From assembly GCA_003602515.1 (NCBI GenBank), contig QQSB01000005.1, forward strand, positions 88,247 through 152,246: a DNA stretch of 64,000 bases. The letters run 5' to 3'. This document shows, in pieces, positions 5,168-58,036 of the stretch. Numbering within the stretch: the stretch's first letter is position 1; each line of letters starts with the position of its first letter. Origin of the DNA: Candidatus Poseidoniales archaeon (lineage in GTDB: Archaea > Thermoplasmatota > Poseidoniia > Poseidoniales > Thalassarchaeaceae). The position numbers and the translations under genes were made by a program. The notes under the pieces were generated by a model. That model made no database searches. It was not told where the DNA came from and was given only the letters and a program-made list of their open reading frames with translations.

Positions 5168-7204
5168 ATGCAAACTTATGGACGGTCAATTTCCCGATTC
5201 ATCTCCGTGTCTAGTTCAGGGTTGGCAAATAGCAGTCTTTTCTTCGCTCATGAGGCTCCAAGGGAGTCACAAATAGGAATGATATCTGATGGAATTGACG
5301 CATTGAAGAATAGGGGTTTCCTACTCGCCGCGGCACCTACGGGTATTGGAAAGACTGCTGCTGCACTAGCATCCGCACTAAATGCTGCTAATCAAAGTGA
5401 GAATCCAGAGATTCCAAAAATTATGTTTCTAACTGGGAGGCAATCGCAACACAGAATCGTAGTTGACACAATACGTGAAATCAACAAGAGGCTGCCAAGT
5501 GGATTCAGCAGGGTGAAAGTGGTTGACATCATTGGACGAGAGAGTATGTGCAAATCTGTAGATCGGTCAACGGGAAAGTGCAATTGTGAAATTGGGGTAA
5601 CTGAATCGGAGAGGAGGTTCCTGAGAGCGGACTTAGAGGAGTTCATCCATTCTGAACCGAGGCATGTTGATCAGGTTCTGAAGCGAGTCAGGAAGACAGA
5701 AGTGTGTGCTTGGGCAACTGCAAGAGAAGCGGCAAAAAATACTAGGGTAATCGTCTGCGACTACAATCACGTTTTCGTGGAGGGCGTCAGAGATTCTTCA
5801 CTCCCAGTAATGGGAATAGATCTAGAAAACACGATTCTAATCGTCGATGAGGCACATAACCTCCCGGATCGTATTAGGAGCGGCCTGGAGAGAAGGATCA
5901 CTCAGAAAGTATTCCAAAGAGCATTGTCTGATGTAGAAGAATACAAGGAGAGTACGGAGAAAAGAGAAGAAGACTTGGAGATTCCTGAATCGAATCAACT
6001 TAGGGAAGCAAAATCTCTAGAGAGACAAATTCGAGCTCTGAGGGATAATGCAAGTCTAAGGAAATGGTTCGAAGAGAAGATGTCTGAGAACCAACAAACT
6101 AAGGGAGATGACGTCAGAGTAGCGACTCAGGAATTCATAGACATTGTTTCGAAGGCCATAGAGGGAGTGCTAGAAGAAGAACCTGAAGACGATATTTCTC
6201 GTCTAAGGGGGATGATTGCAAGATTGTTATCAGTCGTAATCGAAGAAGATGAGGATTTAGAGGAAGATGACCAGAATGAATGTACTAGGCTTGCTGAGAT
6301 CTTGGAGATTTGTATCAGATATAGGAAAAATCCAGCATTGGCATTGGTCTTCGATGAGCTTTTAGATGAGCCAAGGATAACTAGTCATCTGCTGGATCCT
6401 AGTGTTGTTGGGGAGCCTATCTTCGAACAATGCCTAGGTTCGATATTGATGTCTGGAACACTATTCCCTCCAGAAATGTATGCAGATATACTAGGAGTGC
6501 CGAGTATTCGTTCTTCATGCAACGAGTATTCGTCGGATTTCCCCTTGGGCAATAGACCCGTGCTAATTGCAAGTGATGTGACAAGCAAGTTCACTGAAAG
6601 AGAGGAGTGTTTTTCTTCAATAATTAGCCATGTAAAATCTGTAATTGAGAACACGAAAGGAAACGTTGCCATTTTTGCCCCCAGCTATTCTATGCTAGAT
6701 AGGATTCATGACGAGTTTGAGAATACTTGGAGTCCAAAGAAAATAATCAGAGAAGAGCAGCGAATGAGTAAATCGGGAGTAGAGAGTTTGATCTCCAAAC
6801 TCTATGAGCAGAAGCAAATGGGAGGTGCTGCACTTTTTGGAGTACTAAGTGGAAAGTTATCCGAAGGTGTCGACTATTCGGAAAATGTTCTGAATGCTCT
6901 TGTTTGTGTTGGCCTACCTTTGCCTCCTCCGAGTGCCAGACAAGATGCCTTGCTAGAGTATTATTCGAAGAAGTATGATAGGAACCGTGCATGGAAGTAT
7001 GCAAGTCTTCAACCGGCTGTTAACAGCATACTGCAAGCCCTTGGAAGACCAATCAGGAAGAAGGAGGATAGGGCGATTGTAGTCCTCCTAGAGAAGAGGC
7101 TCCTAGAAAGAAGAGTCAGCAGTTGTATGCCTGCAATGCAGAAGATGAGGACATCGAAACCAGAGAGGACGGCTGAACGGGTCAAGGCATTTTTTGAGAT
7201 CTGA
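5168..7204 (+). CDS. xpd: XPD/Rad3-family (DEAD_2) 5'-3' DNA helicase
   Basis: The Q-motif-like region is FFAHEAPRESQ. Walker A is AAPTGIGKTAA and motif II is IVDEAHNLPD. The cysteines MCK..KCNC..VCAW sit where the FeS domain lies. DYNHVF is present, as is the C-terminal helicase_C_2-like GKLSEGVDY...QALGRPIR. Confidence 0.85.
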   Translation: MQTYGRSISRFISVSSSGLANSSLFFAHEAPRESQIGMISDGIDALKNRGFLLAAAPTGIGKTAAALASALNAANQSENPEIPKIMFLTGRQSQHRIVVDTIREINKRLPSGFSRVKVVDIIGRESMCKSVDRSTGKCNCEIGVTESERRFLRADLEEFIHSEPRHVDQVLKRVRKTEVCAWATAREAAKNTRVIVCDYNHVFVEGVRDSSLPVMGIDLENTILIVDEAHNLPDRIRSGLERRITQKVFQRALSDVEEYKESTEKREEDLEIPESNQLREAKSLERQIRALRDNASLRKWFEEKMSENQQTKGDDVRVATQEFIDIVSKAIEGVLEEEPEDDISRLRGMIARLLSVVIEEDEDLEEDDQNECTRLAEILEICIRYRKNPALALVFDELLDEPRITSHLLDPSVVGEPIFEQCLGSILMSGTLFPPEMYADILGVPSIRSSCNEYSSDFPLGNRPVLIASDVTSKFTEREECFSSIISHVKSVIENTKGNVAIFAPSYSMLDRIHDEFENTWSPKKIIREEQRMSKSGVESLISKLYEQKQMGGAALFGVLSGKLSEGVDYSENVLNALVCVGLPLPPPSARQDALLEYYSKKYDRNRAWKYASLQPAVNSILQALGRPIRKKEDRAIVVLLEKRLLERRVSSCMPAMQKMRTSKPERTAERVKAFFEI

Positions 7205-7244
7205 CCAACAATGGGTTCATGCGAGTCGCACAACTGGGTATTGC

Positions 7245-7697
7245 ATGGAGTGGACTAGGGTCGATGTCCAATCTGATGCGGAGATGGGGGCAATTGGTGG
7301 TCTGGCGGATCTTAAAGTCGGCCTTGATACAGATGCAGAGTCTATGCATCGAGTCTTCCTAGATGAGTTGCCCCATCTATCAGAGGTAATGGAGATGCAC
7401 AACTCCGTAGTTTCTGAAGCAGAGTCTAGAGTCGTTAGCGAGTCCATTTCTACCTTGGGTGAGTTTGTCTCCGAGTTCGGGGGAGAGTGGTCGGGATCTG
7501 AAATAAGACTGCCCTTGCAAACAACAGAAAAGAGCGAGATTGCCATCGACACTATGATTGAAAATAACTCTCAGATTGTCCGAATGATCTCTCCGGAGAG
7601 GTTCGGCGGATTGGTGAGGAAATTCCGACTACCCGAGGGGAGGAGCGTTGCAGAGGCAATTTGGGAAGGGGAATTCATTTCAATCAAGTTAGATTGA
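7245..7697 (+). CDS. Hypothetical acidic protein; C-terminus weakly resembles an Hsp20/alpha-crystallin motif
   Basis: ATG 7245 is preferred over TTG 7194, which overlaps the helicase. The C-terminal RKFRLPEGRSVAEAIWEGEFISIKL resembles the R.F.LP..V....A....G.L.I consensus. This is motif-level only. Confidence 0.4.
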   Translation: MEWTRVDVQSDAEMGAIGGLADLKVGLDTDAESMHRVFLDELPHLSEVMEMHNSVVSEAESRVVSESISTLGEFVSEFGGEWSGSEIRLPLQTTEKSEIAIDTMIENNSQIVRMISPERFGGLVRKFRLPEGRSVAEAIWEGEFISIKLD

Positions 7698-7698
7698 G

Positions 7699-10600
7699 TC
7701 ATTCATCGATCTCGAAATGAAGATCCCTCTCTGGTATGTCTTGAATCGCCTCTATCTCCTGCATGACCGAAGAGAGCGCCAGTTGTGCGTTATCCCTATG
7801 AGTATCCCCGAGAACGTGGCTTGAGTACCTGGCCTCCTCGAAGATTCGATCCAAGGACACCAAGGAGGCCTCGCTGATTGGGAGGGCCGCCCGGATTGCG
7901 TGCTCGAACTCTCTCACAGTCTCGAAGCTCCTTCGTAGGAAGCCCCGGCGCATGAGGACCGAACACATATTGTCGTAGCACAGGAAGATTGCTCGTCGAT
8001 ATTCATCGCCAGATGCTAGCATCTCCACGGTCTGTCCCAGAACCTTGGCGAGTTCCCTAATTGTTGATTTTCTCTTAGTATTGAAAGCCATGGCTCCGAT
8101 GGCAATAGCGATGGCTGCTATCACCAGGGCACCGATTCCAACGGCTGCGCTGCCGAAGAAAGAGTCCCCCTCCTGTTTCTCATAAGTAATGGAAACGCCA
8201 GAGGATGGCAGTAAGGCGAGGCTACCTGGTTCGATGAACTCTGAGTCCGAACCAATCATCACGCCTAGAAGGCCCCATCCCTCTGGTGGCAGGGATTGTT
8301 CTGAAAAGGCAGGAAGGGGCGCCATTGACTTGAATTCATACTGGAAGACTCCGTCTTCTCCAGTTAGCTTGGAGACTGAGAAGTGAGTGGTACTGCCATT
8401 TACCAGACTGGCCGTTAGGGAAAGCCCCTCCAGAGGGGCCCCGGTATCCCTAGCCGTGGCGTTTACAGTTCCCTTGATTACCCTCTGACCGTTTGATAGA
8501 TCAAGTTCCGAGTATACGAAGTCAACCTCGATCATCACCAGAATCTCAATTTCCTTAGAAAGCCCGTTCAGGAATCTCGACTGGTCGGAGTCGACCACTA
8601 TGGCAATGACGTTCTCTCCGGGGTACATGAATTCCTGGGCCTTCGCTCTTATCTGGAAGTTCATCGTGCTCGGATTATCCCATGGCCCTGCAGTGATCGG
8701 AAGTTCAGACTCCCCCCAAGTTAGGCTCATGGAAAGGTTGGCGAAGATTGCTGATTCCCCTCCTACTTCTCTTACGAGTCCTTGAATCATTATTGAGCTA
8801 GAAGGAGAGGCATCGCCTCGAATGATAGTATTGGTAATTGGCTGTACCTCGACTACGATGTCAGACAGGGCAAAGACCTGCGAAACAGACTCTGCGGAGA
8901 GGTAGAGCAACTCGCCACCGAATTGGAATGAGACATTATGTGAACCTCTGCTCAATGCGTATTGCACTCTATGGCTGTAGGAGAAGAAGCCTCCTTCCTC
9001 CGTGACTACCAATTCGGCAGGAGTTCCATCCAAAAATATCGATATCTCCCTCCCCTCGAGGCCCTGCTCGAAACCGGTATCGGATTCGTAAAGCCGGCCG
9101 CTGAAGTTCCAATGGCCCCCCCTAGTAACATATGTCTGTTCGACCTGGTGTGAAATTGTGGTATGGTAAGAAACTGTGAAATTGGAATCTACCAATCCCT
9201 GCCTGTAGAATCCTTGTGCAGGCGAGATTGCAGAAATAGAATGGTTTCCTACATCCATAGACTCTGGGATTATCCACTCCAAGGACCAAATGCCATTTTC
9301 CTGGCTACTGGTGATTCCAACTAATACGCCATCTACGAATACCTCGATTGTTTGACTCCCTAGCCAACCATCCTCCAAGTTGTCCTCTGCAGTACCAGAA
9401 ATCAGCATGACGTCTCCGACGGCGATTGGCCCGATTGGATCCATTGTGAGGAAAACTGGGGAGAATACAGTGAATACCACGGATGATTCCGAAGGAAGAA
9501 GGAAATCCTCCCCAGCGAACTCTATCCCGATTACCATTGGTCCGAGTTCCATATCTGATGCAATGGGGACAAAACCTGTGAATGACCCATTTACGTCCAC
9601 AGATAGTGATGTAATCTCCTGCCCATTCACCGACATGGCAAGATCCCTATTTGGGATGGTCCGTCCTACGCCATCTGTTAGCACGCCTTCTACCACTGCC
9701 ACCTCTGTTCTGTCAATCTCGGCGGGCGGGGTAGAAATCACTACTTGAGTCGGTTGAGTGACATTGAACACCATTGAGTCGGAGGAGCCCAAATAGTATT
9801 CTGGATTTAGAGAGTCTCCTTGACCCATTGGATCTACCCAGGAAAATCCCCCTAGGAAGTCTACGCGAGCAGTATGGGGGCCGAAGTCCATATCTGAAGG
9901 GATCAGGTATGTTATCGACCACTGGCCCGTAGTAGCGTTGGAGAAAGTAGTGTAGGAGGGTCCGACGTCGATACCATCGACATACAGGTGAACAAGGCCG
10001 CCGCTAGAGTTGCCGTCATGTTGCAGGAGTTGCCCCCTTTCATCCAAAAGTGAGCCGACCAGAGTTACCGAACCACCCGATATGGATGGCGAGGATGCTT
10101 CCTTCAGGACCAGTTCTGTGGGAGCTAGAACGACTACTCGGGTCCATGCCTCATCACCCAGAAGGCCAATAGTCCCATTGATTCCCGAGAAGGTAGCTGT
10201 GACAACCATTGGACCTGGTTGTCTATCCGGCCTGACAAGTATTGATGCTGAGGCAGTGCCATTCGAATCGGACAGACCGCCCCATACGGTGAGATTGTCA
10301 ATTCTCACCACTATAGTCGCAGATGTTATTGGCCCGCCAGCATTATCGATTAGTGAAAGGGAGATATCGAAAGTTTCCCCTCTGACAGTCCTATTATCGG
10401 GGTCGAGGTCATCTGGGCTTTCTATGGTTAAGACCGAAAAACCTCTGCTATCGAATGTGGCAAACCCGGATGCAGAGGTAAAATATGTCACCTGCGGAGT
10501 GAAAGAAACATCCAATCCATGTACTCCTCGCGGGAATGATAGGTCGAGCCGTAGTTCCGCCAACCAAGATCCATCGGCGTTGAATGTTACTTGGGAAACC

Positions 10601-13600
10601 GTGAATGTACTGGAGTCACCGTCAATAGAGAATGTCAGTGTTGGATTCAAGGGGTTCCCAGAAATGTCGGCTAGTCCCGATCCGTTGCTTGATGTAAGAG
10701 ACCCGGTGACGTTGAAGAATTCTCCCGGTAGTGGGTTCGTGGTAATAGGATCTATTGCCATGGTGGCCGAAGATCTAACTGTAATTGTATTCAGAATCTG
10801 AACCGCTTGTTGGAGGTCAACGGACCCGTTGAATACGAAGGTGACATTCACAAGGCCAAGTGGGTGGTCATGGGGAACTTCGAATTCGAAGGCTACGCTG
10901 CCATCAGAAGCGGTGACTGCAGTTTCTAGCCAAGTATCATGGAAGCGGGCCAATACTTCGAAGCCGGAGAGAGGGTTCTCGTTATTGCTAAACTCGACTA
11001 GCCTAGTTGTGATGGTGATTGATTCGCCTCTGTCCACGATGGTGTTAACGAACGGATTAGAGTCGACGAATTGGGGAATTCCTATCACTAGTATTGATGC
11101 ATCTCCATTTCCTGTAAGATAGAATGGTGTCGAGCCATTGACTACGCTCACGACCACAGTCCTGTCACCTCTGAGGACACCGTTTCCTAGGGTATCAGTA
11201 GGGACAGTGAGATTGAATGCGCCCGACATATTAGTAGTCTGGTTTTCGATCAGAAGTTCGCCTGGTTCGTCTAGGAAGAAGACGTTGATTCCTACGGGCC
11301 CGTCTACCGTCCTATTTACATCTGCTGAGTCCATCACATTACCCACTAAGTTGAATGATTGTAGTGCAGTAACCTGAGAGGGGATTGAGTTGATCTCAAC
11401 CGAGCTAGCAACTTGCACTGTTAGGTTCACGAAACTTTCGTTCCCAAGCCATCTTCCTGCTTCGGTCGAAGTCAGCGTATCCGAAAGGTCATCTGGTGCG
11501 TGCACCCTGATGTCGTAGAATCCGGGTGGGGCAGTTGATGGTATGATTGGATCGAATGAGACCTGGCCTTGTGAGTTGGTGGTTCCGGATTGCAGGATAT
11601 CCTGCAAGGGCCCACCCCAGTCAAAGTATAGATCCAGAGCAACGCCAGAAAGTACTACATCTGGATCCTCAACATCTGTAACGGTTGATTGGAGCAGTAA
11701 TTCTTCTCCTGCAGTTACTATCGAGGCTTGGGGGTCGGTCTCGATGACGAACTCAGTCTGTACACCTAAATCTATTATGGTTGGATCTCCAGCATTGTAG
11801 TAGCTCCCTCCTACGGGAGGGTTTCCAGAGAAACTCAATGTGATATGAAGCTCGTACACACCAGAGGAGACGCCCTGTGGGATCTCGAATGAGATATTGT
11901 ATGTGCCCGTCGTTTCATCCACCCAACCGTTTGCGATATTGTAGGTGGGCCCGGCTGCTGGGAATCCACCGGGAGTTGGGGGGAGTTCAGAGGGTAAGAC
12001 AAGTTGCACCAATACAGAACTGTTGTTACCGGTGATCGGACTCTGCAAAACCATATCGTTTGCGGAACCAGAGACCCAATTTGTCGAGCCCCGTATAGAC
12101 CAATCACTAGAGAGGCTTGCAGAGGCATTACCCATTCCTCTGACCCTTAGAACTCCTGATGTAGAGTTGGGGCTGAGCCAAGTGGAGCCTCCATAGCTAA
12201 GATTCCAATCATAGTCCCCGGGAGTCATCGTGAATGAAGGAATGAAGGCAGGGGTAACCCGGCCAGCATCAGGATTTGATTCGTTCCAAACTAGATCGCC
12301 ATCAAAAATTAGTTCGTATTCGCCATCGAATGGGGCGAATGATGAGCCTGTGTGATCCTCCAGGAATACGTCAACTGCATACTCTCTGCCCCTAATCGCA
12401 AATGGTAGTTCATAGTCGAAAACAACGAAACTGCGTATACCATAGGTATCGATAAATTGCTCTTGGTCATTCGAATTTAAGTTGTCGGAGTCGAACTGTA
12501 GACGTACATCGACCGGTCCCGCCGGAAGAGGGACTTCAGAGGCGGAGAAGGACCAAATGATGGAGAATTCGCCGGAGTTGGAACCCCAAGAGGAATTATT
12601 CAGGTACCATGTAGTCAATTCTTGGAATGGTCCCGAGAGGTCGGCCCTACGCATCTCTAGAATCAATGTCCCGTTTAGCGGGGTAGGAGATGGCCCCCTG
12701 CTGAGAACCGTGCCATTGAGGTAGATACTGCTGCCGATTTCCAAAATCGAGTTATTCAGTCCCTGGGACTGGATATCTACTGTCAGGTTGGGAGAAAGCG
12801 TGATGTTGAACTTGAAAGGGAGGGATCCGGGTAGTGCGTGGTAAGAAGCAGGGGTGGCATTATTCAAATCGTCGAAATGCCAACCATCGAATGAAATCGC
12901 GGCATCCATCAATCCGAGTGGTTCTGTCTCATCGATTGGCACAATGAACTCGTAGTACCCTCCTCCAGATACTCCGGAAGCAATCGATACTTCGCCATCA
13001 ACGACTGATGAGTAGTTCAGAGTGACCTGTAGATCATCTACAATTGAAGGATCCAAGAAAGGTGAGTTCGCCCAAGAAAGTTGCCCGGTAATTGATGAGT
13101 TTACCCCGATTCCTAGCATTGGCTGTCCTACTGGATTTGGGCTCGTGATAGTCATAGATACGTTATCCGTGACATTTACCTGCCAAGGCATAGAAATCCC
13201 TTGCGTGCCCACATAACCCATCTCAGTGGTTAGTATTACCAAAGATCCGAATCCTGGTTGAATTATCTGTTGGGGGAGCCCGGTTAGGTTGAATGATCCG
13301 TTCTCATCCGTCGTCACATTAGCTACCAAGTGATCTAAGATGGCTGCACTCCCGGGCACCTGTTCGGATTGGTTTGGCTCGACGAGGTACATCGAGAGTG
13401 TGATATTTTCCACCAGAGTCTGGTTTTCTACAAACTCCAAGGTACCCTCGACCCAGATTTCCTCCGATGTAGTTGTGTTCCTCTGAACAGAAGTCGGACC
13501 CCAAGAATCCACATTAACCCTAACTTCAGACATCGGCGGGCAGGCTTCGAAGGGGATCCAACCGAGATCCAGCTCACCCTGGTTTTGATTGGTCTGCAAA

Positions 13601-16600
13601 TGAACCTCTGCCCATCTAGTGAAGTCTTTGCCGTACACATTGAATGCCTTGCCGTCCCACGTACCGCCGGAGAAGCCAGTGACCTTGCGTGCGGGGATTC
13701 CCGCGATCCTAAGCATAGTCACGAATACGGATGTGAACTCATCGCAGTCTCCTTCTCTGGATGAGTTTAGAATCCAATGAGTTACATCACTATCTATCCC
13801 AATACCGCTTTCCCTGCCAGAGCCGAAGTGATTCCTTAGAAAGGAGATTGTTTCATTACCGTTCACTATGAAATTCTGAATGGCGGTGACCTTGTCCCAT
13901 GCCGATATTGCTCCTGACTGATCCAGAACATCCTGGGTAAGGTTTGCAACAAAGCCAGAACTGTTCATGAATTCTTGTGGGAGGTCTTTGCCGTAATCAG
14001 AATCAGCGAAGGCTGTGGAATTATCTCTGATTGCAGCTGACAAAATCACCTCTGGTGCATTGACGTATAATGCCTCGATGACGGCACTGTCAACGATTAT
14101 GTCACGAGTGTAGTTAGAGAAATTGAGTCCGGCTGAAATATCCACCCAAGTTGTGAAATTCACAACATTGTAAGGCTGAATCAGTTCTTGACCGGGTCCA
14201 ATGTAACCTGCTTCATCGAAAATTATCTCCCATGATAGTGGACCCGAGTGGTTCCAGAAGGATTGGTCTGCAACCCCTTGTTCTGTGGAGAATTCCGGAG
14301 AAACCTGAGTATTCCCCAATAGGGTGCTATTGACGCCCCATGACACTCCGGTGTAGAAGTCATAGGTATGCCATCTCCAGTAGTGTTTGAGTGTTGGATC
14401 CAGTCCTTCTGAGCTATTTGTGGCGGTGAACATGAGTGCGTTCTCCTGTATATCGTCAATTGGATTGAAGGGGTCGCTCGGAGAACCGACGCAATCCAGA
14501 ACCCAGAAGTCCTCGGGGCATTCTTCACCATCGGGAATTCCACCGCCATCAGAATCGGGGTCGAGCCAGTCAGTTCCAAGCTCCTGCTCTATCAAATCGG
14601 GTATGCCATCGCCATCGGTATCAAGAGGGTTGATGTCGTCGTCCGGGTTATCTTGTGGGTTTGTCCCGTCTAGATATTCCTGGCCGTCATCGACCCCCCC
14701 ATTGTCAGAATCTGCTACGTTCCAAAGAGTGAACCAAACGTCAGACGTGAAATTTCCTCCGAAGCCGAAGCCACCGATGCCGAAAATCATTGAGCACCCA
14801 GTGGTATTCTCGAAATAGTTGTTGAGGCCGTCCTCATCGGAATCAAGCAGGTTGTGACAAGGCTCTCTCGGGTCTGTCAGATTGAGAGTCTCGGATAGGT
14901 CATTGACTCCGTCACCATCGGTATCGTAGAGGGTCGGATCGGAAAGGTACCCCCATGCTGCTGTCAATTCCTCCCAATCTGCAAGGCCATCGCCATCAGT
15001 GTCCTTGTAGTCATCATCACACCATGGATCGTTGGTAGCATTTGCAGAAGCATCCCAGCACCAGGAGCCATTGATGAATGAAATAGTTGATGCCCCGGCA
15101 GGGGGTTCCGTATCTATTCCCTTTAGGAATGATGGTTCCTCCAAGGAGTCATAGCTGAACGGCGTCCGTGAACCATTGGCTGAAACAAAGTAGGCCATTG
15201 GGGCATTTCCCCTCCAATCCACGGGGTTGGGGTTTATTCCTTCTGTAGAGTTGATGGTTAGAGTATCTGCATCTGAATCCCAGAATATGATTGTGAAGAC
15301 GAGTTCTAAAATTGATGTGCACGGGTCGGTCTGTCCGGGAAAGCCTTCGTCACCGTCACTTATCCCACCGCCGTCTGAATCGGAGACATTCCACAGCGTG
15401 CAGGAGTTATTCTCCTCCCAATTTTGTAGCCCGTCGCCATCAAAATCCCCCTCATCGTTTATCCTAGTTGGATCAGTCTCGCCGGGATCGATCACCCCGT
15501 TGCCATTCAGATCTTCGTCGCCATCGTCCAAATGGTCACCATCCGTATTGTTGCTCCGGGGGTCCGAACCCTGGGCGGGATCGCCGTACGAACCATTGTA
15601 CTCGATTCCGTCTAGAATCCCGTCCGAGTCAGTATCCGGGGATGTTGGGTCAGTCAGTAAGATAAGGCCCTCCAAGGAGTCATTCAGGCCATCACCATCG
15701 GTATCGTTGTTCTGAGGGTCAGTCTGGGTAATTCCATCGACCTCGGCGGTAAAAATTCCACATCCACCTGGACCTAGTGAAAGCACTGGATTGCAAGGCG
15801 ACTCAGTTATCGTCATGTTGATTGGCCCTGGCCTGAAGTACTGCGTAGGAGGGAATGTCGTTCCGTTCCTGGTGCCCCATGCAGGATTGACGTACTCGTA
15901 AATGTTTGATAGCCCGTCTAAGTCAGGGTCTCCGAAAGTCCCATCCTGATTTGAGTTTGATGTTGGATCGAGGCCGTTTGCTGCCTCCCATCCATCCGGC
16001 ATCCCATCCCCATCGGAATCCCAACCATTGGGGTCCTCATCTTCCAATCCGTCCCCATCATCATCATTGGAGCTACAATCGGCATCCCCATCGAAGTCCG
16101 GATCATTGGAATCAACCATCCCATCGTGATCGTTGTCGAAGGTATCGGTGCAGATGTTTCCTACTGGATCCTCGTCAGCGCCATCTGAACCTGAGCCCTG
16201 AATCACTTGCATGGCACTCTCCTCGTCCCAGTTCGAGACTGGAATTGTGCCATTCCACCAAACACCATTGTCCAGGACGTTAGTGGTGGAAGGCTCATCC
16301 CAACCCGATGGTATCCCGTAAAGATACTCGTTGAGATTCGTGAGGCCATCGGAGTCGGGGTCTCCAGTGGAGCCGTTTTCTCCGGTTGACGAAAGGGGGT
16401 CTAATCCATATTGCCATTCCCACCCATCGGGCAGGCCGTCGTTATCGGAGTCCCAATCCTGTGGCTGGGTATTGATCAGAAACTCAATCCCATATGGGAG
16501 TCCATCTGCATCCTGGTCGTTCGTGGTTGCGGAAACCTCGAAGACGGCAAGTTGCATAGAGGCCACCCCCATCATTAGGAGTAAGAAGGTGAGAAATATG

Positions 16601-16659
16601 GCTGATCTCTTCTTGCCCATTGGGCCAGATTCTTCGTAATTTGAAGTTAGCATCTGCAT
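7699..16659 (-). CDS. Giant (2,986 aa) type-I membrane-anchored mosaic surface protein with a transglutaminase-like core
   Basis: It is a single uninterrupted ORF. The N-terminal signal/anchor is KKRSAIFLTFLLLMMGVASMQLAVFEVSA. The domain blocks are listed as separate features below. The exoplasmic part has a very high density of N-x-S/T sequons. Confidence 0.85.
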   Translation of the reverse strand: MQMLTSNYEESGPMGKKRSAIFLTFLLLMMGVASMQLAVFEVSATTNDQDADGLPYGIEFLINTQPQDWDSDNDGLPDGWEWQYGLDPLSSTGENGSTGDPDSDGLTNLNEYLYGIPSGWDEPSTTNVLDNGVWWNGTIPVSNWDEESAMQVIQGSGSDGADEDPVGNICTDTFDNDHDGMVDSNDPDFDGDADCSSNDDDGDGLEDEDPNGWDSDGDGMPDGWEAANGLDPTSNSNQDGTFGDPDLDGLSNIYEYVNPAWGTRNGTTFPPTQYFRPGPINMTITESPCNPVLSLGPGGCGIFTAEVDGITQTDPQNNDTDGDGLNDSLEGLILLTDPTSPDTDSDGILDGIEYNGSYGDPAQGSDPRSNNTDGDHLDDGDEDLNGNGVIDPGETDPTRINDEGDFDGDGLQNWEENNSCTLWNVSDSDGGGISDGDEGFPGQTDPCTSILELVFTIIFWDSDADTLTINSTEGINPNPVDWRGNAPMAYFVSANGSRTPFSYDSLEEPSFLKGIDTEPPAGASTISFINGSWCWDASANATNDPWCDDDYKDTDGDGLADWEELTAAWGYLSDPTLYDTDGDGVNDLSETLNLTDPREPCHNLLDSDEDGLNNYFENTTGCSMIFGIGGFGFGGNFTSDVWFTLWNVADSDNGGVDDGQEYLDGTNPQDNPDDDINPLDTDGDGIPDLIEQELGTDWLDPDSDGGGIPDGEECPEDFWVLDCVGSPSDPFNPIDDIQENALMFTATNSSEGLDPTLKHYWRWHTYDFYTGVSWGVNSTLLGNTQVSPEFSTEQGVADQSFWNHSGPLSWEIIFDEAGYIGPGQELIQPYNVVNFTTWVDISAGLNFSNYTRDIIVDSAVIEALYVNAPEVILSAAIRDNSTAFADSDYGKDLPQEFMNSSGFVANLTQDVLDQSGAISAWDKVTAIQNFIVNGNETISFLRNHFGSGRESGIGIDSDVTHWILNSSREGDCDEFTSVFVTMLRIAGIPARKVTGFSGGTWDGKAFNVYGKDFTRWAEVHLQTNQNQGELDLGWIPFEACPPMSEVRVNVDSWGPTSVQRNTTTSEEIWVEGTLEFVENQTLVENITLSMYLVEPNQSEQVPGSAAILDHLVANVTTDENGSFNLTGLPQQIIQPGFGSLVILTTEMGYVGTQGISMPWQVNVTDNVSMTITSPNPVGQPMLGIGVNSSITGQLSWANSPFLDPSIVDDLQVTLNYSSVVDGEVSIASGVSGGGYYEFIVPIDETEPLGLMDAAISFDGWHFDDLNNATPASYHALPGSLPFKFNITLSPNLTVDIQSQGLNNSILEIGSSIYLNGTVLSRGPSPTPLNGTLILEMRRADLSGPFQELTTWYLNNSSWGSNSGEFSIIWSFSASEVPLPAGPVDVRLQFDSDNLNSNDQEQFIDTYGIRSFVVFDYELPFAIRGREYAVDVFLEDHTGSSFAPFDGEYELIFDGDLVWNESNPDAGRVTPAFIPSFTMTPGDYDWNLSYGGSTWLSPNSTSGVLRVRGMGNASASLSSDWSIRGSTNWVSGSANDMVLQSPITGNNSSVLVQLVLPSELPPTPGGFPAAGPTYNIANGWVDETTGTYNISFEIPQGVSSGVYELHITLSFSGNPPVGGSYYNAGDPTIIDLGVQTEFVIETDPQASIVTAGEELLLQSTVTDVEDPDVVLSGVALDLYFDWGGPLQDILQSGTTNSQGQVSFDPIIPSTAPPGFYDIRVHAPDDLSDTLTSTEAGRWLGNESFVNLTVQVASSVEINSIPSQVTALQSFNLVGNVMDSADVNRTVDGPVGINVFFLDEPGELLIENQTTNMSGAFNLTVPTDTLGNGVLRGDRTVVVSVVNGSTPFYLTGNGDASILVIGIPQFVDSNPFVNTIVDRGESITITTRLVEFSNNENPLSGFEVLARFHDTWLETAVTASDGSVAFEFEVPHDHPLGLVNVTFVFNGSVDLQQAVQILNTITVRSSATMAIDPITTNPLPGEFFNVTGSLTSSNGSGLADISGNPLNPTLTFSIDGDSSTFTVSQVTFNADGSWLAELRLDLSFPRGVHGLDVSFTPQVTYFTSASGFATFDSRGFSVLTIESPDDLDPDNRTVRGETFDISLSLIDNAGGPITSATIVVRIDNLTVWGGLSDSNGTASASILVRPDRQPGPMVVTATFSGINGTIGLLGDEAWTRVVVLAPTELVLKEASSPSISGGSVTLVGSLLDERGQLLQHDGNSSGGLVHLYVDGIDVGPSYTTFSNATTGQWSITYLIPSDMDFGPHTARVDFLGGFSWVDPMGQGDSLNPEYYLGSSDSMVFNVTQPTQVVISTPPAEIDRTEVAVVEGVLTDGVGRTIPNRDLAMSVNGQEITSLSVDVNGSFTGFVPIASDMELGPMVIGIEFAGEDFLLPSESSVVFTVFSPVFLTMDPIGPIAVGDVMLISGTAEDNLEDGWLGSQTIEVFVDGVLVGITSSQENGIWSLEWIIPESMDVGNHSISAISPAQGFYRQGLVDSNFTVSYHTTISHQVEQTYVTRGGHWNFSGRLYESDTGFEQGLEGREISIFLDGTPAELVVTEEGGFFSYSHRVQYALSRGSHNVSFQFGGELLYLSAESVSQVFALSDIVVEVQPITNTIIRGDASPSSSIMIQGLVREVGGESAIFANLSMSLTWGESELPITAGPWDNPSTMNFQIRAKAQEFMYPGENVIAIVVDSDQSRFLNGLSKEIEILVMIEVDFVYSELDLSNGQRVIKGTVNATARDTGAPLEGLSLTASLVNGSTTHFSVSKLTGEDGVFQYEFKSMAPLPAFSEQSLPPEGWGLLGVMIGSDSEFIEPGSLALLPSSGVSITYEKQEGDSFFGSAAVGIGALVIAAIAIAIGAMAFNTKRKSTIRELAKVLGQTVEMLASGDEYRRAIFLCYDNMCSVLMRRGFLRRSFETVREFEHAIRAALPISEASLVSLDRIFEEARYSSHVLGDTHRDNAQLALSSVMQEIEAIQDIPERDLHFEIDE
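7702..8151 (-). other. C-terminal TM helix (8083-8151) plus a 127-aa cytoplasmic DUF4129-like tail (7702-8082)
   Basis: The TM helix is SAAVGIGALVIAAIAIAIGAMAF, followed by the positive NTKRKSTIR. The tail reads FLRRSFETVREFEHAIRAAL...LDRIFEEARYSSHVL. This matches my recollection of the DUF4129 signature (ET.REF ... E.ARYS). Confidence 0.6.
8170..13512 (-). repeat. Series of beta-sandwich (prealbumin/CarboxypepD_reg-like or Ig-like) modules (aa ~1050-2830)
   Basis: The signature T/S-(D/N)-x-x-G-x-(F/W)-x-h-x-h-P recurs at least 10 times. Examples are TTDENGSFNLTGLP, TNSQGQVSFDPIIP, TTNMSGAFNLTVP, ASDGSVAFEFEVP, SVDVNGSFTGFVP, SQENGIWSLEWIIP, ATTGQWSITYLIP and TGEDGVFQYEF. Confidence 0.6.
13540..13917 (-). 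other. Transglutaminase-like (papain-fold) core domain of the giant protein (aa ~915-1040)
   Basis: REGDCDEFTSVFVTMLRIAGIPARKVTGF contains Cys972, encoded at 13744-13746. TRWAEVHL contains His1020. GWIPFEACP has Glu1038 where Asp is usual. The upstream HYWRWHTYDFYTGVSW resembles the TgpA-type pre-core segment. Confidence 0.75.
14524..16518 (-). repeat. Array of thrombospondin type-3-like Ca-binding repeats (aa ~48-712 of the giant protein)
   Basis: I count about 18 D-x-D-x-D-G-x-x-D-x-x-E units by eye. Examples are DSDNDGLPDGWE, DPDSDGLTNLNE, DSDGDGMPDGWE, DTDGDGLNDSLE, DTDSDGILDGIE, DFDGDGLQNWEE, DTDGDGLADWEE, DTDGDGVNDLSE, DSDEDGLNNYFE, DTDGDGIPDLIE and DPDSDGGGIPDGEE. Confidence 0.75.
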
Positions 16660-16734: not shown

Positions 16735-19689
16735 CTATAATAGTTCGACGTCGTCATCATCGTACCTTTCTGCCCCACTAGGTTCTTCCTCTACAGTTAC
16801 TGGTGCTGGAATCTCGGGAGTGGTTTCTTCGACCTGGACCACATCATCAGATAGTGACTCCAGCATCCTCATTTGTGAGGCCCACCTTCTCCTATTGAGT
16901 CTACTCTGAATACCGGCAAAAAGCAATAGGACACTGACCAAAACCAGAACAATGGTGATTGGGCGGGGATGAGCCATTTCGTTGACGATAATATCTGCGA
17001 ATGAACCAATCTCAACGATTGCCGTAAGTGTGAACTTGGCAGTAAGAGACTCGGAGAAGCTCTGCTCTGTATCTAGTGGGGTGGCGGTGACGGTGATTGG
17101 AATTGAGTCACCGTTGTTTGCTGAATCGGAAACAGAAACTTCGACAGTGAAGGTTGCCTCGTCAAACGCCTCGATTTCTATCAGGGGGGATCCGGAAAGT
17201 CCACCGATACTTACATCCCACCCACCCTCGTCCACATCAGCTTCCAGAAGAACGGTCATTGGACTATTGCCCTCATTCTTCACCTTCATCTGTATGGAAT
17301 AGTCATTGCCTGGAGCGAGTTTGGTATTTTGAGACACCTGGACTATCTCCAGCATCGGTTGATCTGCTTCGATCTCAAAGGTCATGGGGAGGTCGAAATA
17401 TCTTGGTTCGTCTTCTTCTATGTCCTCAACAATCCTCAGATATACTGTATGGTTCCCCACTTCTACCTCATTTGTCAGCGTTGCACTGATGAAGACCTCT
17501 GTGAAGTCTCCAGGTCCAAGAGAAACCCTGGGGACCGCTTCTCCATCAGAATTTGTAATTCTGAAATCCCATTGGCCATATGCGGGGTTTCTATCCGTAT
17601 TTTCCTTCAATGAGGCAGGATTTTGAAGCAGCCACCATGATGCTGCTTCCAAATCCGTCTCACTATTTGTCAATCGTGCTCTGAAATCCAATACGGGCCT
17701 ATCCTGACCAGGTGCACAGAGTGCTACCTTCATGTGTCCGAGGGGAGTACCATCACAATCCTGTGAAACCTCGCCCCTAATGCCATATGTTCTCTGGATG
17801 GTGAATGAAATGGTAGTAGTAGTAGAAGCATTTCCCCCGCTGATTACTTCTATTTCAATCTCTCCAATGTCATCATCCTCTCTATCTAGGCTAGGCTTCA
17901 CCCCGAGAATCAGAACCTTTGTGCTGTGCCTCTCCAAAAGGGGAGTGTGGAAAGTTCCGTCTCCCTCATCTTGGAGTATCCTCTGCCCGGTTAGGTTATC
18001 GTGCAATTGGAAGATTGATTTTGATCTCTTCAGAATATCTATTCTGAAGGTGTCGGCATCGAAACCGGTATTGAAAATCTCCAAAATAAATGGATTGAAT
18101 TCCCCATACTCAGCGAATCTGGGGATGGTCGAATCGAGGGCTTCTCCTCTTGAGGAGTTCGCTATTGGTATTTTATGATCCTCAGACCAGACTGAAACTA
18201 CCGGTGGCTGATAGACGTCAATCTTCTCCACATTCAGTACGAGGGTATCTTGGTGGACGACGGAAATAACCCCATCCACATCCGCTTCGGCTACTGCTCG
18301 GATCTCAATCTTCTTAGGCATCCCAGTAAGATCGTCGGGAGCCGTGAGTGTCACTGTAGGGTTAATCACAGTGCCGCCGGAACTCATCTCGTATCCTGCT
18401 GGTGAGTCGAACTCAACCAACCAAGAGCTGCCCATATTGGTCAGAACCTCAAGTTCTACGGTCATTGACTTCGTGGAATCCCCCCTGTGGACAAGAACCA
18501 TGGGGATAGGAGTTACCTTCCCCGGGGCGAAGTACTCTACTGAACGATCGAACCGATGCTTCACTGATACGCCAAACTGGTGCATCTCTATTGGTTCGTG
18601 TTCGATTTCTATTTCGTTACCACCGACATCCCGGACCCTGAGAAATACAGTATACTCTCCGGGTGAAAGTCCACTATCGTAGGTGAAAAGGAATTTTCCA
18701 AAGATCCCTGTGCTTGAATCCTCGATATCCTCCATATCGCCAGTGATTCTTTCATCGACCTCATAGTTCCCATCCGGTCCCCTCATGAGTATGTCAACTC
18801 TGGAGATGTCTGCCCTCCCAAAGGCACTGATCGCATCTAGTGAAAACTGCATCTCCCGATCCTCCACAATGTCATTCGGATACCAGTCTATAACAGAGCC
18901 CTCGGCAATATTCGCACCTTCCCTCTGAACTACAATGATGCTATTCATCAGTGCATTTCCATTTGCTTCCATCTTGGAAAATTTGTTCGGCTCGTTGTCA
19001 ATGTTGTTGAATGCGACATCTGCAGAGCAGCTAGACCCACCGAACGGGCTATCACTGCCGTCGCATCCAGACATACTAGCTCTGACCCTGATGATCAATC
19101 GCTCATTCTTCCCTACTTGGAAGGATTCGGAATTTCCTATCCCGACGTCTATGATCTCGTGATCGAAATCGCAACTGCTACCAAATGACGAGGTACATAC
19201 GGAGCCAGAGTAAGTTGTTGATCCAATGGTCCTCTCTGAAGTCATAATGGAAACTGTCCAATCAACATTTGAATTCTGAGATCCTTCTGACTTGAGGAAT
19301 AATTCAACTGGAATGTAGTATGAGTCGTTTGCATGGAATTTCCTGCCAAAGAATTCCATAGAAGACATCAATGAAATGGTCATAAATTGAACATCGTCAT
19401 CCAAAGCACTTGCGACTTCCTGGTCCTCATTCCCTTCAGGCGGCTGAGTGCTGATCAGTCCATCCATTCCAGCAGTTTGGTTCTGGCCGGGTTGTACGAA
19501 GTACAACTTGTATAAGTTGGCGTCTGGAGCACTTTCAGAGGCATGGAATGGCCTGAATTCGGGAAGTTCTGAAGATTCCAAATCGAAGCCCGTAGGAACA
19601 AGCATCAACAATGCCAACGACAGTGAGACCAGTGCAGTTTGACGCACACAGGAGTCGGGGTTGCTATTTCGCACGATTGTGCGCCGCAT
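16735..19689 (-). CDS. Large (984 aa) membrane-anchored surface protein with NEW3/CARDB-like beta-sandwich domains
   Basis: The N-terminal anchor is TALVSLSLALLMLVPTGF. CARDB/NEW3-like segments include PGNDYSIQMKVKNEGNSPMTVLLEADVDEGGWDVSIG and GEFNPFILEIFNTGFDADTFRIDI. The C-terminal TM ITIVLVLVSVLLLFAGIQ is followed by SRLNRRRW and an acidic tail ending DDDDVELL. Confidence 0.7.
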   Translation of the reverse strand: MRRTIVRNSNPDSCVRQTALVSLSLALLMLVPTGFDLESSELPEFRPFHASESAPDANLYKLYFVQPGQNQTAGMDGLISTQPPEGNEDQEVASALDDDVQFMTISLMSSMEFFGRKFHANDSYYIPVELFLKSEGSQNSNVDWTVSIMTSERTIGSTTYSGSVCTSSFGSSCDFDHEIIDVGIGNSESFQVGKNERLIIRVRASMSGCDGSDSPFGGSSCSADVAFNNIDNEPNKFSKMEANGNALMNSIIVVQREGANIAEGSVIDWYPNDIVEDREMQFSLDAISAFGRADISRVDILMRGPDGNYEVDERITGDMEDIEDSSTGIFGKFLFTYDSGLSPGEYTVFLRVRDVGGNEIEIEHEPIEMHQFGVSVKHRFDRSVEYFAPGKVTPIPMVLVHRGDSTKSMTVELEVLTNMGSSWLVEFDSPAGYEMSSGGTVINPTVTLTAPDDLTGMPKKIEIRAVAEADVDGVISVVHQDTLVLNVEKIDVYQPPVVSVWSEDHKIPIANSSRGEALDSTIPRFAEYGEFNPFILEIFNTGFDADTFRIDILKRSKSIFQLHDNLTGQRILQDEGDGTFHTPLLERHSTKVLILGVKPSLDREDDDIGEIEIEVISGGNASTTTTISFTIQRTYGIRGEVSQDCDGTPLGHMKVALCAPGQDRPVLDFRARLTNSETDLEAASWWLLQNPASLKENTDRNPAYGQWDFRITNSDGEAVPRVSLGPGDFTEVFISATLTNEVEVGNHTVYLRIVEDIEEDEPRYFDLPMTFEIEADQPMLEIVQVSQNTKLAPGNDYSIQMKVKNEGNSPMTVLLEADVDEGGWDVSIGGLSGSPLIEIEAFDEATFTVEVSVSDSANNGDSIPITVTATPLDTEQSFSESLTAKFTLTAIVEIGSFADIIVNEMAHPRPITIVLVLVSVLLLFAGIQSRLNRRRWASQMRMLESLSDDVVQVEETTPEIPAPVTVEEEPSGAERYDDDDVELL

Positions 19690-19790: not shown

Positions 19791-19876
19791 GCAGGGGTAC
19801 CCGAGTTGGTCAAAGGGGCCGGACTTAAGCTCCGGTGCTTAGTGCTTCATGGGTTCGAATCCCATCCCCTGCACCA
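19791..19876 (+). tRNA. tRNA-Leu (anticodon UAA) with a long variable arm and a genomically encoded CCA
   Basis: The acceptor stem is GCAGGGG/CCCCTGC. The anticodon stem CCGGA/TCCGG carries the loop CTTAAGC. The T-arm is ATGGG TTCGAAT CCCAT. The class II variable arm is TGCTTAGTGCTTC. The 3' end is A-CCA at 19873-19876. Confidence 0.93.
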
Positions 19877-56773: not shown

Positions 56774-58036
56774 TCATATCGATTCTATCACAACAGCGAT
56801 TCCTTGACCGCCGCCGATGCAGGCCGTGGCTACACCGAAACGCCCGCCAGTCCTCTTCAACTGGTGCGAGAGAGTCAGGACCAGCCTAGTTCCGGTTGCT
56901 GCTAGAGGGTGCCCTAGTCCGACGGCACCACCATTCACATTGACTCGGTCATAGTCTATCCCGAGATCCTTGATGCAGGCCACTGCCTGACCTGCGAATG
57001 CCTCGTTAATCTCCCACAGGTCTATTTCAGAGACCGTGAGGCCTGCATTCTGGATCGCCTTCTGGCTGGAGGGAACTGGACCGTAAGCCATGATGCTGGG
57101 CTCAAGACCGACTATCCCCCATGAGACAATTCTTGCGAGAGGTTCATCGCCGTCTGCCTCTGCTCTGGATGCAGACTTCACCACAACAGCTGCAGCGCCA
57201 TCGACGACTCCGGAGGCATTTCCCGCCGTCACCAGTGAATCAGGTCCGAAGTGAGTCCTCAGTCCGGAGAGAGTGTCGATGGTCGTTCCGAGGACTACGT
57301 GATCCTCGTGGGAGTGGTCGATTACGCCATCTGGGGTCTCTACTGAAATTACCTCATCCTGCCAAATACCAGATGAGACGCTTGATTCCGTCCTCTGGTG
57401 ACTCATGGCGGCGTACTCGTCTGCCTCCTCACGGACTACGCCCTTCCTACGGCATAATTCGTCACTAGTCTGGGCCATGAACATGCCACTGACCCCATCG
57501 ACCAGATTGGTGAATAGATAGTCCTCCATATCTTGTGGGATTTCTTCCCCGGCAGAAGGCGGCCTACCGAGCTTGTAAGACCCCCTCATGCCCCTGAGGA
57601 CATGTGGAGCCTGGCTGAGGTTCTCCATGCCTCCTGCGACAACCACCTCTGCCTCTCCCAGCATTATCATCTGAGTTGCACTGATTATCGACTGTGCTCC
57701 ACTTCCGCAAAGTCGGTTTAGTGTTAGCATCGGGACTTCCTGTGGTATTCCTGCTCTGAGCCCGGCGTGCCTGGCTCCAAAGATTGCTTGTCCAGAGGTC
57801 TGCAATGCGTGCCCCATGACTACGTGTTCAACGGAATTTGGGTTTGTACCGGAATTATCCATGGCACCCTTGATTGCTATGGTTCCCAGTTCCTCTGCGG
57901 ACACGGATGATAGTCTCCCTCCGGGACCGCCATCCCCTCTCTTGCCACCTAGCCATTCGCAGAAAGGGGTCCTTGCCCCCCCTACGACAACCGCGCTCTC
58001 GGTCATGCCATTACTTCCACTAGGATCAAGATTCAT
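56774..58036 (-). CDS. Acetyl-CoA C-acetyltransferase (thiolase II type)
   Basis: The active-site contexts are NRLCGSGAQSI, NVNGGAVGLGHPLAATG and ACIGGGQGIA. Confidence 0.9.
   Translation of the reverse strand: MNLDPSGSNGMTESAVVVGGARTPFCEWLGGKRGDGGPGGRLSSVSAEELGTIAIKGAMDNSGTNPNSVEHVVMGHALQTSGQAIFGARHAGLRAGIPQEVPMLTLNRLCGSGAQSIISATQMIMLGEAEVVVAGGMENLSQAPHVLRGMRGSYKLGRPPSAGEEIPQDMEDYLFTNLVDGVSGMFMAQTSDELCRRKGVVREEADEYAAMSHQRTESSVSSGIWQDEVISVETPDGVIDHSHEDHVVLGTTIDTLSGLRTHFGPDSLVTAGNASGVVDGAAAVVVKSASRAEADGDEPLARIVSWGIVGLEPSIMAYGPVPSSQKAIQNAGLTVSEIDLWEINEAFAGQAVACIKDLGIDYDRVNVNGGAVGLGHPLAATGTRLVLTLSHQLKRTGGRFGVATACIGGGQGIAVVIESI

Follow-up and report, generated by a model that had tools for sequence, protein, structure and literature searches.

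What does a marine archaeon do with a single chain of 2,986 amino acids (aa) that combines calcium-binding-type repeats, a transglutaminase-like domain, a long array of β-sandwich modules and a DUF4129 tail? The question is raised by a gene on a 64,000-nucleotide stretch of contig QQSB01000005.1 from a Candidatus Poseidoniales archaeon (the whole stretch is called the window below). Poseidoniales, or Marine Group II (MGII), of which no member has been cultured, are ranked first in abundance among the planktonic archaea in the surface waters of the ocean (PMC6461757). The gene (7699..16659, minus strand), delimited from the list of open reading frames (ORFs), its translation, orthologues and composition, is one unbroken ATG-start ORF of 2,986 codons encoding a protein of ~321 kDa with a computed isoelectric point of ~4.05. 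From the N- to the C-terminus, this giant protein comprises a signal or anchor sequence, a thrombospondin-type-3 (TSP3)-like region, a TgpA-type domain, 16 β-sandwich modules, a transmembrane helix and a DUF4129 tail. An earlier examination of the DNA without database searches (the sequence-only reading) had described an uninterrupted 8.96-kb ORF with its domains in a set order; the single ORF, the order and the topology all hold. We see in the giant protein a variant of the TgpA/DUF4129 family that is new and spans the whole lineage, not a new kind of system. We favour, with a probability of about 55%, the explanation that it is an enlarged MGII member of the TgpA family that serves as a non-catalytic (or non-canonical), glycosylated and Ca-stabilized scaffold of the envelope or as an adhesin, its conserved tail acting as a coupling element in the cytoplasm.

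Conservation and architecture

A search of 5.8 billion proteins returned 1,887 matches. The best 120 were essentially all full-length (99–100% coverage) at 98% to 40% identity, and 119 of these 120 measured 2,982 ± 12 aa. Where a match carried a name, this was either "hypothetical protein" or "transglutaminase domain-containing protein", assigned to Ca. Thalassarchaeaceae, Poseidoniales or MGII/III euryarchaeotes. On contigs chosen at one genome per species, from metagenome-assembled genomes (MAGs) and single-amplified genomes, we recovered 78 loci that were colinear over the whole protein, with best-segment identities mostly of 37–94%. They span Thalassarchaeaceae (MGIIb) and Poseidoniaceae/Poseidonia (MGIIa), and the comparison with other marine euryarchaeal genomes that had been proposed for this gene therefore yielded full-length orthologues in both Poseidoniales families. 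Constant length and position across both families mark the giant gene as a core component of the predicted cell surface of Poseidoniales. An artefact, whether an assembly chimera or a read-through of several genes, has only the unusual size of the gene in its favour. It is excluded, with negligible residual probability, by a 98%-identical protein of 2,986 aa on a 165.7-kb contig, by more than 100 independent full-length orthologues among cluster representatives, by the 78 colinear loci with their conserved synteny, and by DNA without misleading repeats (the gene contains no tandem or long direct repeats). One contig, CAXQWT010000077.1, belongs to a MAG labelled as the bacterium "Salipiger bermudensis" and carries the full giant gene together with the MGII gene order (GDH, XPD and a gene for a 984-aa protein); in all likelihood it comes from Poseidoniales and was binned wrongly.

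The hydropathy profile contains two hydrophobic segments only, at aa ~20–44 and aa ~2832–2862. The first, preceded by KKR, forms the peak of an N-terminal signal peptide or signal anchor (aa 1–44; 16528..16659, minus strand), which is poorly conserved (all-pairs identity of 27% among orthologues). The second, followed by NTKRKS, corresponds in hydropathy and sequence to a single C-terminal transmembrane helix (~2833–2858) with an R/K-rich stop-transfer stretch (aa 2826–2865; 8065..8184, minus strand). The topology predicted from the sequence is thus consistent with export of the chain, a membrane anchor near its C-terminus and a tail that remains in the cytoplasm.

Between the signal and the TgpA-type domain lies the putatively Ca-binding TSP3-like region (aa 45–734; 14458..16527, minus strand), delimited by motif counts, a partial NCBIfam match and the conservation of its cysteines. 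All 16 strict D-x-D-x-D-G motifs of the protein fall within aa 48–705; the number expected by chance is 0.22 when the whole protein is shuffled and 0.45 when only the region is. With 21–24 relaxed patterns of the same type in the giant protein, the initial estimate of ~18 TSP3-like repeats was a fair one. Pfam TSP3_bac scored 22.4 bits over five stretches against a cut-off of 25, which several orthologues exceed. The region shares DxDxDGxxD motifs and interspersed conserved Cys pairs with thrombospondin/COMP and with the Myxococcus proteins CglD and MtsD. In NCBIfam, CglD (E = 3.8e-27) and MtsD (E = 8.5e-9) gave partial matches confined to the repeats, with scores far under the equivalog cut-offs (94.5 versus 400 bits), and no VWA domain or other part specific to those proteins was detected. 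Six local conserved Cys pairs occur in the region, and the pair formed by C714 and C723 is lost jointly in orthologues. Identity between the window protein and distant orthologues reaches 58% in the TSP3-like region and 57% in the tail, compared with 37% in the TgpA-like domain and 34% in the modules; the TSP3-like region and the tail are thus the most conserved parts of the protein.

The longest section is an array of 16 tandem, mutually homologous β-sandwich modules of ~105 aa (aa 1044–2825; 8185..13530, minus strand). They were delimited with an iterative, domain-level hidden Markov model (HMM), for which a single module in the alignment of 31 orthologues served as the seed. The model converged on 16 contiguous modules from aa 1044 to ~2810, 15 of them strong and the last weak (iE = 4e-4), exceeding the minimum of 10 prealbumin-like modules first proposed. 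The length of every module varies by only a few residues across Poseidoniales. On orthologues, the modules were assigned to Big_3_5, CarboxypepD_reg or MG-like Pfam types, and MG2, bMG3 and MG4 matches on the modules of orthologues and relatives recall the MG arrays of alpha-2-macroglobulin. An alpha-2-macroglobulin-like thioester protein was considered and rejected: MG2 reached 23.5 bits against a cut-off of 32.8, the protein has no CxEQ (C[GLAS]EQ) motif, and neither thioester nor receptor-binding domains were detected in it.

The composition of the ectodomain is equally distinctive. It holds 80 N-x-S/T sequons, compared with 29.4 ± 4.7 in shuffled sequences (2.7-fold, z = 10.8), and the tail holds none, in agreement with the saturation of the exoplasmic part noted from the sequence at the outset. 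All 31 orthologues are sequon-rich (69–105 each, z = 5.8–13), and 25 sequon positions are kept in at least 80% of them. Lysine is depleted in the ectodomain (aa 45–2830), at 16 of 2,786 residues (0.57%) versus 2.4–6.5% in neighbouring proteins, and aspartate and glutamate together make up ~15%.

Behind the membrane helix, the predicted cytoplasmic tail (aa 2866–2986 and stop codon; 7699..8064, minus strand) was defined from Pfam DUF4129 and an AlphaFold2 model. The family matches aa 2894–2959 with 29 bits (cut-off 24.8) and the isolated tail with 34.4 bits, and a tail of 127 aa with a DUF4129-like signature had been proposed; at ~121–127 aa and above the family cut-off, it bears this out. Two motifs, FETVREFE and EEARYSxH, characterize the tail, which was modelled as a five-helix bundle with a predicted local distance difference test (pLDDT) score of 79.8. 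Compared by sequence with the PDB it gave nothing at E ≤ 0.1, and a fold search with the model gave no match at E ≤ 0.001, only generic helical bundles. We do not accept an identity with HEPN domains: the top fold match, 2HSB, reached only E = 0.022 (TM-score 0.52), the conserved R-Y-S-x-H of the tail reads as Rx3H, unlike the Rx4-6H of HEPN, and Pfam HEPN families gave no match in the tail at E ≤ 10. A profile of the tail detected 2,846 proteins among 1.84 billion cluster representatives (E ≤ 0.001), and in all those listed it was C-terminal. The "DUF4129 motif" of a paper on AopN proved to be a weak KEGG motif and is uninformative on the function of DUF4129.

Active site of the TgpA-like domain

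The domain of the TgpA periplasmic type (aa 735–1043; 13531..14457, minus strand) consists of a β N-subdomain and a transglutaminase-like core, as delimited by Pfam, a PDB profile, an AlphaFold2 model and Foldseek. Pfam Transglut_core matches aa 922–1039 (E = 1.2e-12, 48.5 bits, cut-off 23), and the HMM search that had been recommended for this protein therefore places both Transglut_core and DUF4129 above their Pfam cut-offs. Searched against the PDB, a profile of aa 735–1075 matched the periplasmic domain of Pseudomonas aeruginosa TgpA (6G49, E = 3.7e-9). This segment was also modelled with AlphaFold2 (pLDDT 88.4), and Foldseek ranked 6G49 as the top match of the model (E = 4e-14, 313 aligned columns, TM-scores 0.53/0.62). 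The whole two-subdomain TgpA ectodomain is therefore present.

The catalytic residues are conserved only in part. Cys972 (codon 13744..13746, minus strand) aligns with the canonical nucleophile TgpA Cys404, is invariant in 31 of 31 orthologues and occupies the N-terminal end of a helix in the AlphaFold2 model, as in active enzymes. TgpA His448 (DAHAWVE) falls opposite Thr1014 (DFTRWAEV; codon 13618..13620, minus strand) in single-sequence and profile alignments to 6G49 alike. Across the orthologues this position is occupied by T (15), S (6), A (5), N (2), Q, D or G, and never by His (0/31). The sequence-only reading had proposed Cys972 and His1020 as active-site residues. It was right on the cysteine; the histidine is off the canonical position. 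His1020 was rejected as the catalytic residue on two independent alignments to 6G49, which place it 6 residues downstream of Thr1014 on the same strand, and it is R or Q in 6 of the 31 orthologues. A substitute histidine nearby was likewise rejected, with His at positions 1012, 1013 and 1015 in only 7, 1 and 1 of the 31. The canonical Asp position (Glu1038) is E in 16, D in 9, Q in 3, and K, N or H in the remainder. The Cys-His-Asp triad is thus incomplete in all 31 orthologues, its His position never His and its Asp position variable.

A second cysteine, Cys1040 (codon 13540..13542, minus strand), two residues past the Asp position, is invariant in the 31 orthologues and corresponds to Thr360 in TG2. 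In TG2 this threonine, two residues past the catalytic Asp, lines the active-site tunnel (PMC13073648). The ectodomain of the window protein contains 14 cysteines, namely the six pairs of the TSP3-like region plus Cys972 and Cys1040, and cysteine counts across orthologues are mostly even. This pattern suggests a disulfide between Cys972 and Cys1040, or at least a Cys972 that stands outside a classical triad. Because the catalytic His and a conserved Asp are absent and Cys972 is probably paired with Cys1040, the domain is most likely a structural or binding pseudo-enzyme more than a cross-linking enzyme or a protease. The original proposal of an enzyme core that cross-links or cleaves surface, prey or host proteins is weakened by Thr1014 at the His site, the variable Asp position and the lack of invariance of His1020. 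Related giant proteins outside MGII bear both intact and dead versions of the domain, with C-H-D in domain 2 of P0142, C-H-E in P0192, and Thr in place of Cys in domain 1 of P0142, in P0246 and in P0243; catalytic decay therefore recurs in this protein class.

Relatives and gene neighbourhood

The combination of a transglutaminase with DUF4129 is older news than it first appeared. The two had been taken to occur normally as separate small proteins, which is untrue for the TgpA family. A tblastn search of plasmids with a TgpA fragment led to a Ralstonia megaplasmid locus with the order MoxR - DUF58 - "transglutaminase", whose TgpA homologue, a single chain of 717 aa, unites TgpA_N (E = 6e-64), Transglut_core (E = 7e-25) and DUF4129 (E = 4e-11). 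A protein homology search with 67 aa of TgpA as the query was uninformative, yielding only fragments of ~100 aa. PA2873, the TgpA of P. aeruginosa, has six transmembrane helices, five of them within its N-terminal 180 aa, and a periplasmic domain (PMC3507681). The giant protein shares with TgpA the extracytoplasmic two-subdomain domain (6G49 profile and fold), and with TgpA and the Ralstonia homologue the order of transglutaminase outside, transmembrane helix, and DUF4129 inside. It differs in having a single N-terminal signal or anchor in place of the polytopic TgpA_N (DUF3488), of which only the soluble part gives a weak partial match (aa 736–781, E = 0.17). In addition, its TgpA domain is preceded by ~690 aa of TSP3 repeats and followed by 16 modules (~1,780 aa), the catalytic His is missing and the Asp position varies, and the protein is archaeal and sequon-rich. 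Whereas bacterial TgpA homologues usually stand in MoxR-DUF58-TgpA operons, no AAA_3/MoxR, DUF58 or DUF4350 was found in the 40 other window ORFs scanned.

Closer relatives occur among archaea. Beyond the MGII family, proteins related through the DUF4129 tail form a tier of 1,100–1,400 aa and 1,700–3,000 aa; those that are named are "DUF4129 domain-containing protein [Thermoplasmata archaeon]", for example UCH89093.1 (1,240 aa). Among 38 sampled, DUF4129 was found in 37, Big_3_5 in 15, CarboxypepD_reg in 13, MG4 in 9, MG2 in 8, TSP3_bac and Transglut_core in 6 each and TgpA_N in 3, and the MGII module HMM detected 2–16 modules in the non-MGII tail relatives. Their tails are closely related to the MGII tail profile (E = 1e-23 to 1e-15) and they share the same ~105-aa module; these archaeal DUF4129 proteins are true sister architectures. 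In contrast to the MGII family, they are mostly shorter, vary widely in module number and contain a detectable transglutaminase domain in only ~6 of the 38 sampled, with active-site residues C-H-D, C-H-E or a Cys-to-Thr replacement where MGII proteins have Cys-Thr-Glu and Cys1040. The giant protein had been thought to show an undescribed arrangement. In one sense it does: profile searches found no Pfam or NCBIfam family that covers its whole architecture, and the literature search brought up no paper on it. The mosaic itself is not unique, since the non-MGII proteins P0142 (1,897 aa) and P0192 (2,612 aa) combine the same parts, that is, one or more TgpA-like domains, β-sandwich arrays, TSP3 repeats and a DUF4129 tail.

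The genomic context separates the MGII family from some of these relatives. At the P0146 and P0192 loci the giant gene is followed by DUF4350, DUF58 and a gene for a ~560-aa protein, a trio conserved between both, and this linkage is absent at the window locus. The ~560-aa protein, related between loci L080 (11733-15945) and L082 (15433-19632) at E = 2e-18, has a Pro/Tyr/Asp-rich N-terminus, several long hydrophobic stretches and no Pfam match. Another relative, P0241 from a JGI metagenome (locus L081, 8001-17039), is 3,012 aa long and has a more distant DUF4129 tail (E = 7.5e-16), only a faint Transglut_core match and 16 modules by the MGII module HMM. Its neighbourhood differs, containing neither the gene for the 984-aa protein nor DUF58 nor DUF4350; it may represent a sister lineage with a similar length plan.

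Within Poseidoniales the gene order is uniform across loci. On the upstream side, E1-alpha and LipA (opposite strand) are followed by SDR and FolB, which share the strand of the giant gene, and these by the gene for the 984-aa protein and the giant gene itself; downstream, orf167 and XPD are convergent with it and GDH lies further away. The upstream gene (16735..19689, minus strand), identified by translation and synteny, encodes 984 aa (956 aa by most gene callers), ends 76 bp before the giant gene, and is found directly upstream on the same strand wherever the flank suffices, in both families. Its product shows N- and C-terminal hydrophobic segments in the sequence, 6 sequons, and an ectodomain with weak Pfam FixG_C, Ig_VWA7 and NPCBM_assoc (Ig/NEW3/CARDB-like) matches. 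Its relatives are restricted to Poseidoniales and all named "hypothetical protein". It had no PDB sequence match and no clear match to the β-sandwich module HMM, and a phmmer comparison found nothing that would make it a diverged DUF4350, DUF58 or ~560-aa operon partner. The sole tRNA gene in the window, tRNA-Leu (anticodon TAA; 19791-19876, plus strand), separates FolB from this gene, and the 984-aa and giant genes therefore form a two-gene unit. On the other side, orf167 (7194-7697, plus strand) is a conserved 167-aa ORF that starts with TTG, is oriented towards the giant gene and overlaps the end of XPD. No Pfam family matches it, and most Thalassarchaeaceae-type loci have it at the same position (25–85% identity). 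Elsewhere in the window, a flotillin/Band_7 (SPFH) gene lies at 58026-59444 (minus strand), and flotillin is among the MGII genes that have been discussed as affecting cell-surface properties (PMC6461757). The remainder is archaeal housekeeping (eRF1, aTrm56, NOG1, CarAB and tRNA synthetases).

Proposed function at the cell surface

In the scaffold that we favour, the N-terminal signal or anchor would export the chain and the C-terminal helix would anchor it in the membrane, leaving the DUF4129 bundle of ~120 aa in the cytoplasm. The sixteen β-sandwich modules would form a glycosylated stalk of fixed length. This stalk would keep two parts clear of the membrane, the TgpA-like domain and a TSP3 "wire" of ~690 aa that is loaded with Ca2+ and stapled by disulfides, and many N-glycans would line the ectodomain. 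The TgpA-like domain, its Cys972 tied to Cys1040, would act as a non-catalytic structural or binding head, and the DUF4129 bundle would bind a conserved cytoplasmic partner. An interaction outside, in envelope or glycocalyx assembly or in adhesion, could in this way be linked to a conserved partner inside the cell, probably in joint work with the co-oriented 984-aa membrane protein encoded upstream. The outer tip and the inner tail are both conserved and are joined by a spacer constrained in length and relaxed in sequence; to this pattern an envelope scaffold or a device for outside-in coupling is better suited than an enzyme.

The enzymatic alternative is that the protein is an active transglutaminase or cysteine protease carried on a long stalk, which cross-links or cleaves proteins of the envelope, of prey or of particles. 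The significant Transglut_core match, the invariant Cys972 and the TgpA fold agree with it, as does the in vitro activity of the periplasmic domain of P. aeruginosa TgpA (PMC3507681), and an ectodomain so poor in lysine (16 K in 2,786 aa) could guard against self-cross-linking. We nevertheless regard an active enzyme as unlikely: none of the 31 orthologues has the canonical His, His1020 is off-register by 6 and not invariant, the Asp position varies and even admits Lys and Gln, and a second invariant cysteine, Cys1040, occupies the tunnel position. The TgpA-like domain is, moreover, among the less conserved parts of the chain (37%), and sister giants bear dead domains in which Cys is replaced by Thr. 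An adhesin proper, in which the TSP3 repeats and the TgpA-like head would attach MGII cells to particles, to phytoplankton or to one another and the module array would extend their reach, overlaps with the scaffold and does not exclude it. Adhesins typically have TSP3 repeats and Ig-like arrays, the TSP3-like region recalls the adhesion/cohesion proteins CglD and MtsD of Myxococcus, and Rinke et al. take the wide occurrence of "thrombospondin" genes among Poseidoniales as pointing to adhesion (PMC6461757); the giant gene may be among their matches. As the sole function, adhesion is improbable in our estimation, as adhesins usually vary in repeat number and presence while this protein is single-copy, syntenic and invariant in length in every recovered locus, lineages described as free-living included, and as adhesion alone leaves the strongly conserved cytoplasmic tail unexplained.

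The tail invites a further explanation, that of a transmembrane sensor or effector in which an outside event (a ligand, a virus or load on the stalk) would pass through the helix to a DUF4129 bundle acting as a signalling or HEPN-like effector, or recruiting partners of the MoxR/DUF58 type. In keeping with this, the tail equals the best-conserved outside region in its degree of conservation, non-MGII giants with DUF4129 tails directly precede DUF4350 and DUF58 genes, the Ralstonia TgpA follows MoxR-DUF58, and a HEPN protein is the top, if weak, fold match of the tail model (2HSB, E = 0.022, TM-score 0.52). We consider it very improbable, however, as the tail has no fold match at E ≤ 0.001 and no PDB sequence match at E ≤ 0.1, the spacing of its R-Y-S-x-H differs from the HEPN Rx4-6H, and MoxR, DUF58 and DUF4350 are absent from the window ORFs scanned. 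Several points also weigh against the non-catalytic scaffold that we prefer. The binding of Ca2+ by the TSP3-like region, and the heavy N-glycosylation and surface exposure of the ectodomain, on which it draws, are themselves predictions. An invariant Cys at the nucleophile position could mean that a non-canonical catalysis is retained, and bacterial TgpA shows transglutaminase activity in vitro (PMC3507681). Synteny extends order-wide over the whole neighbourhood, and the adjacency of the 984-aa gene alone is no proof of functional coupling. A search for literature tying MGII/Poseidoniales or archaea to transglutaminase or DUF4129 produced nothing relevant. A bolder form of the scaffold would make the giant protein the principal envelope or glycocalyx scaffold of MGII, acting with its 984-aa partner, with a pseudo-enzyme head locked by redox state at Cys972-Cys1040 and a DUF4129 docking or signalling end uncoupled from DUF4350, DUF58 and MoxR; this we put forward as a speculative and rather improbable extension. 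To our knowledge, no cell-wall protein has been described in MGII archaea.

The giant protein is of interest mainly because an abundant and uncultured archaeal order appears to keep so large a protein as a core part of its cell surface, and because its active site is degenerate. As such it is a concrete target for antibodies, cell sorting, cryo-electron tomography and metaproteomics, and a candidate virus receptor or adhesion device. It also provides a natural case of a transglutaminase fold in which the catalytic His has been lost and the Cys kept. Finally, it links the poorly understood DUF4129 tail, known from TgpA and from MoxR/DUF58/DUF4350 systems, to a large class of archaeal surface proteins, and could help to explain what DUF4129 does.

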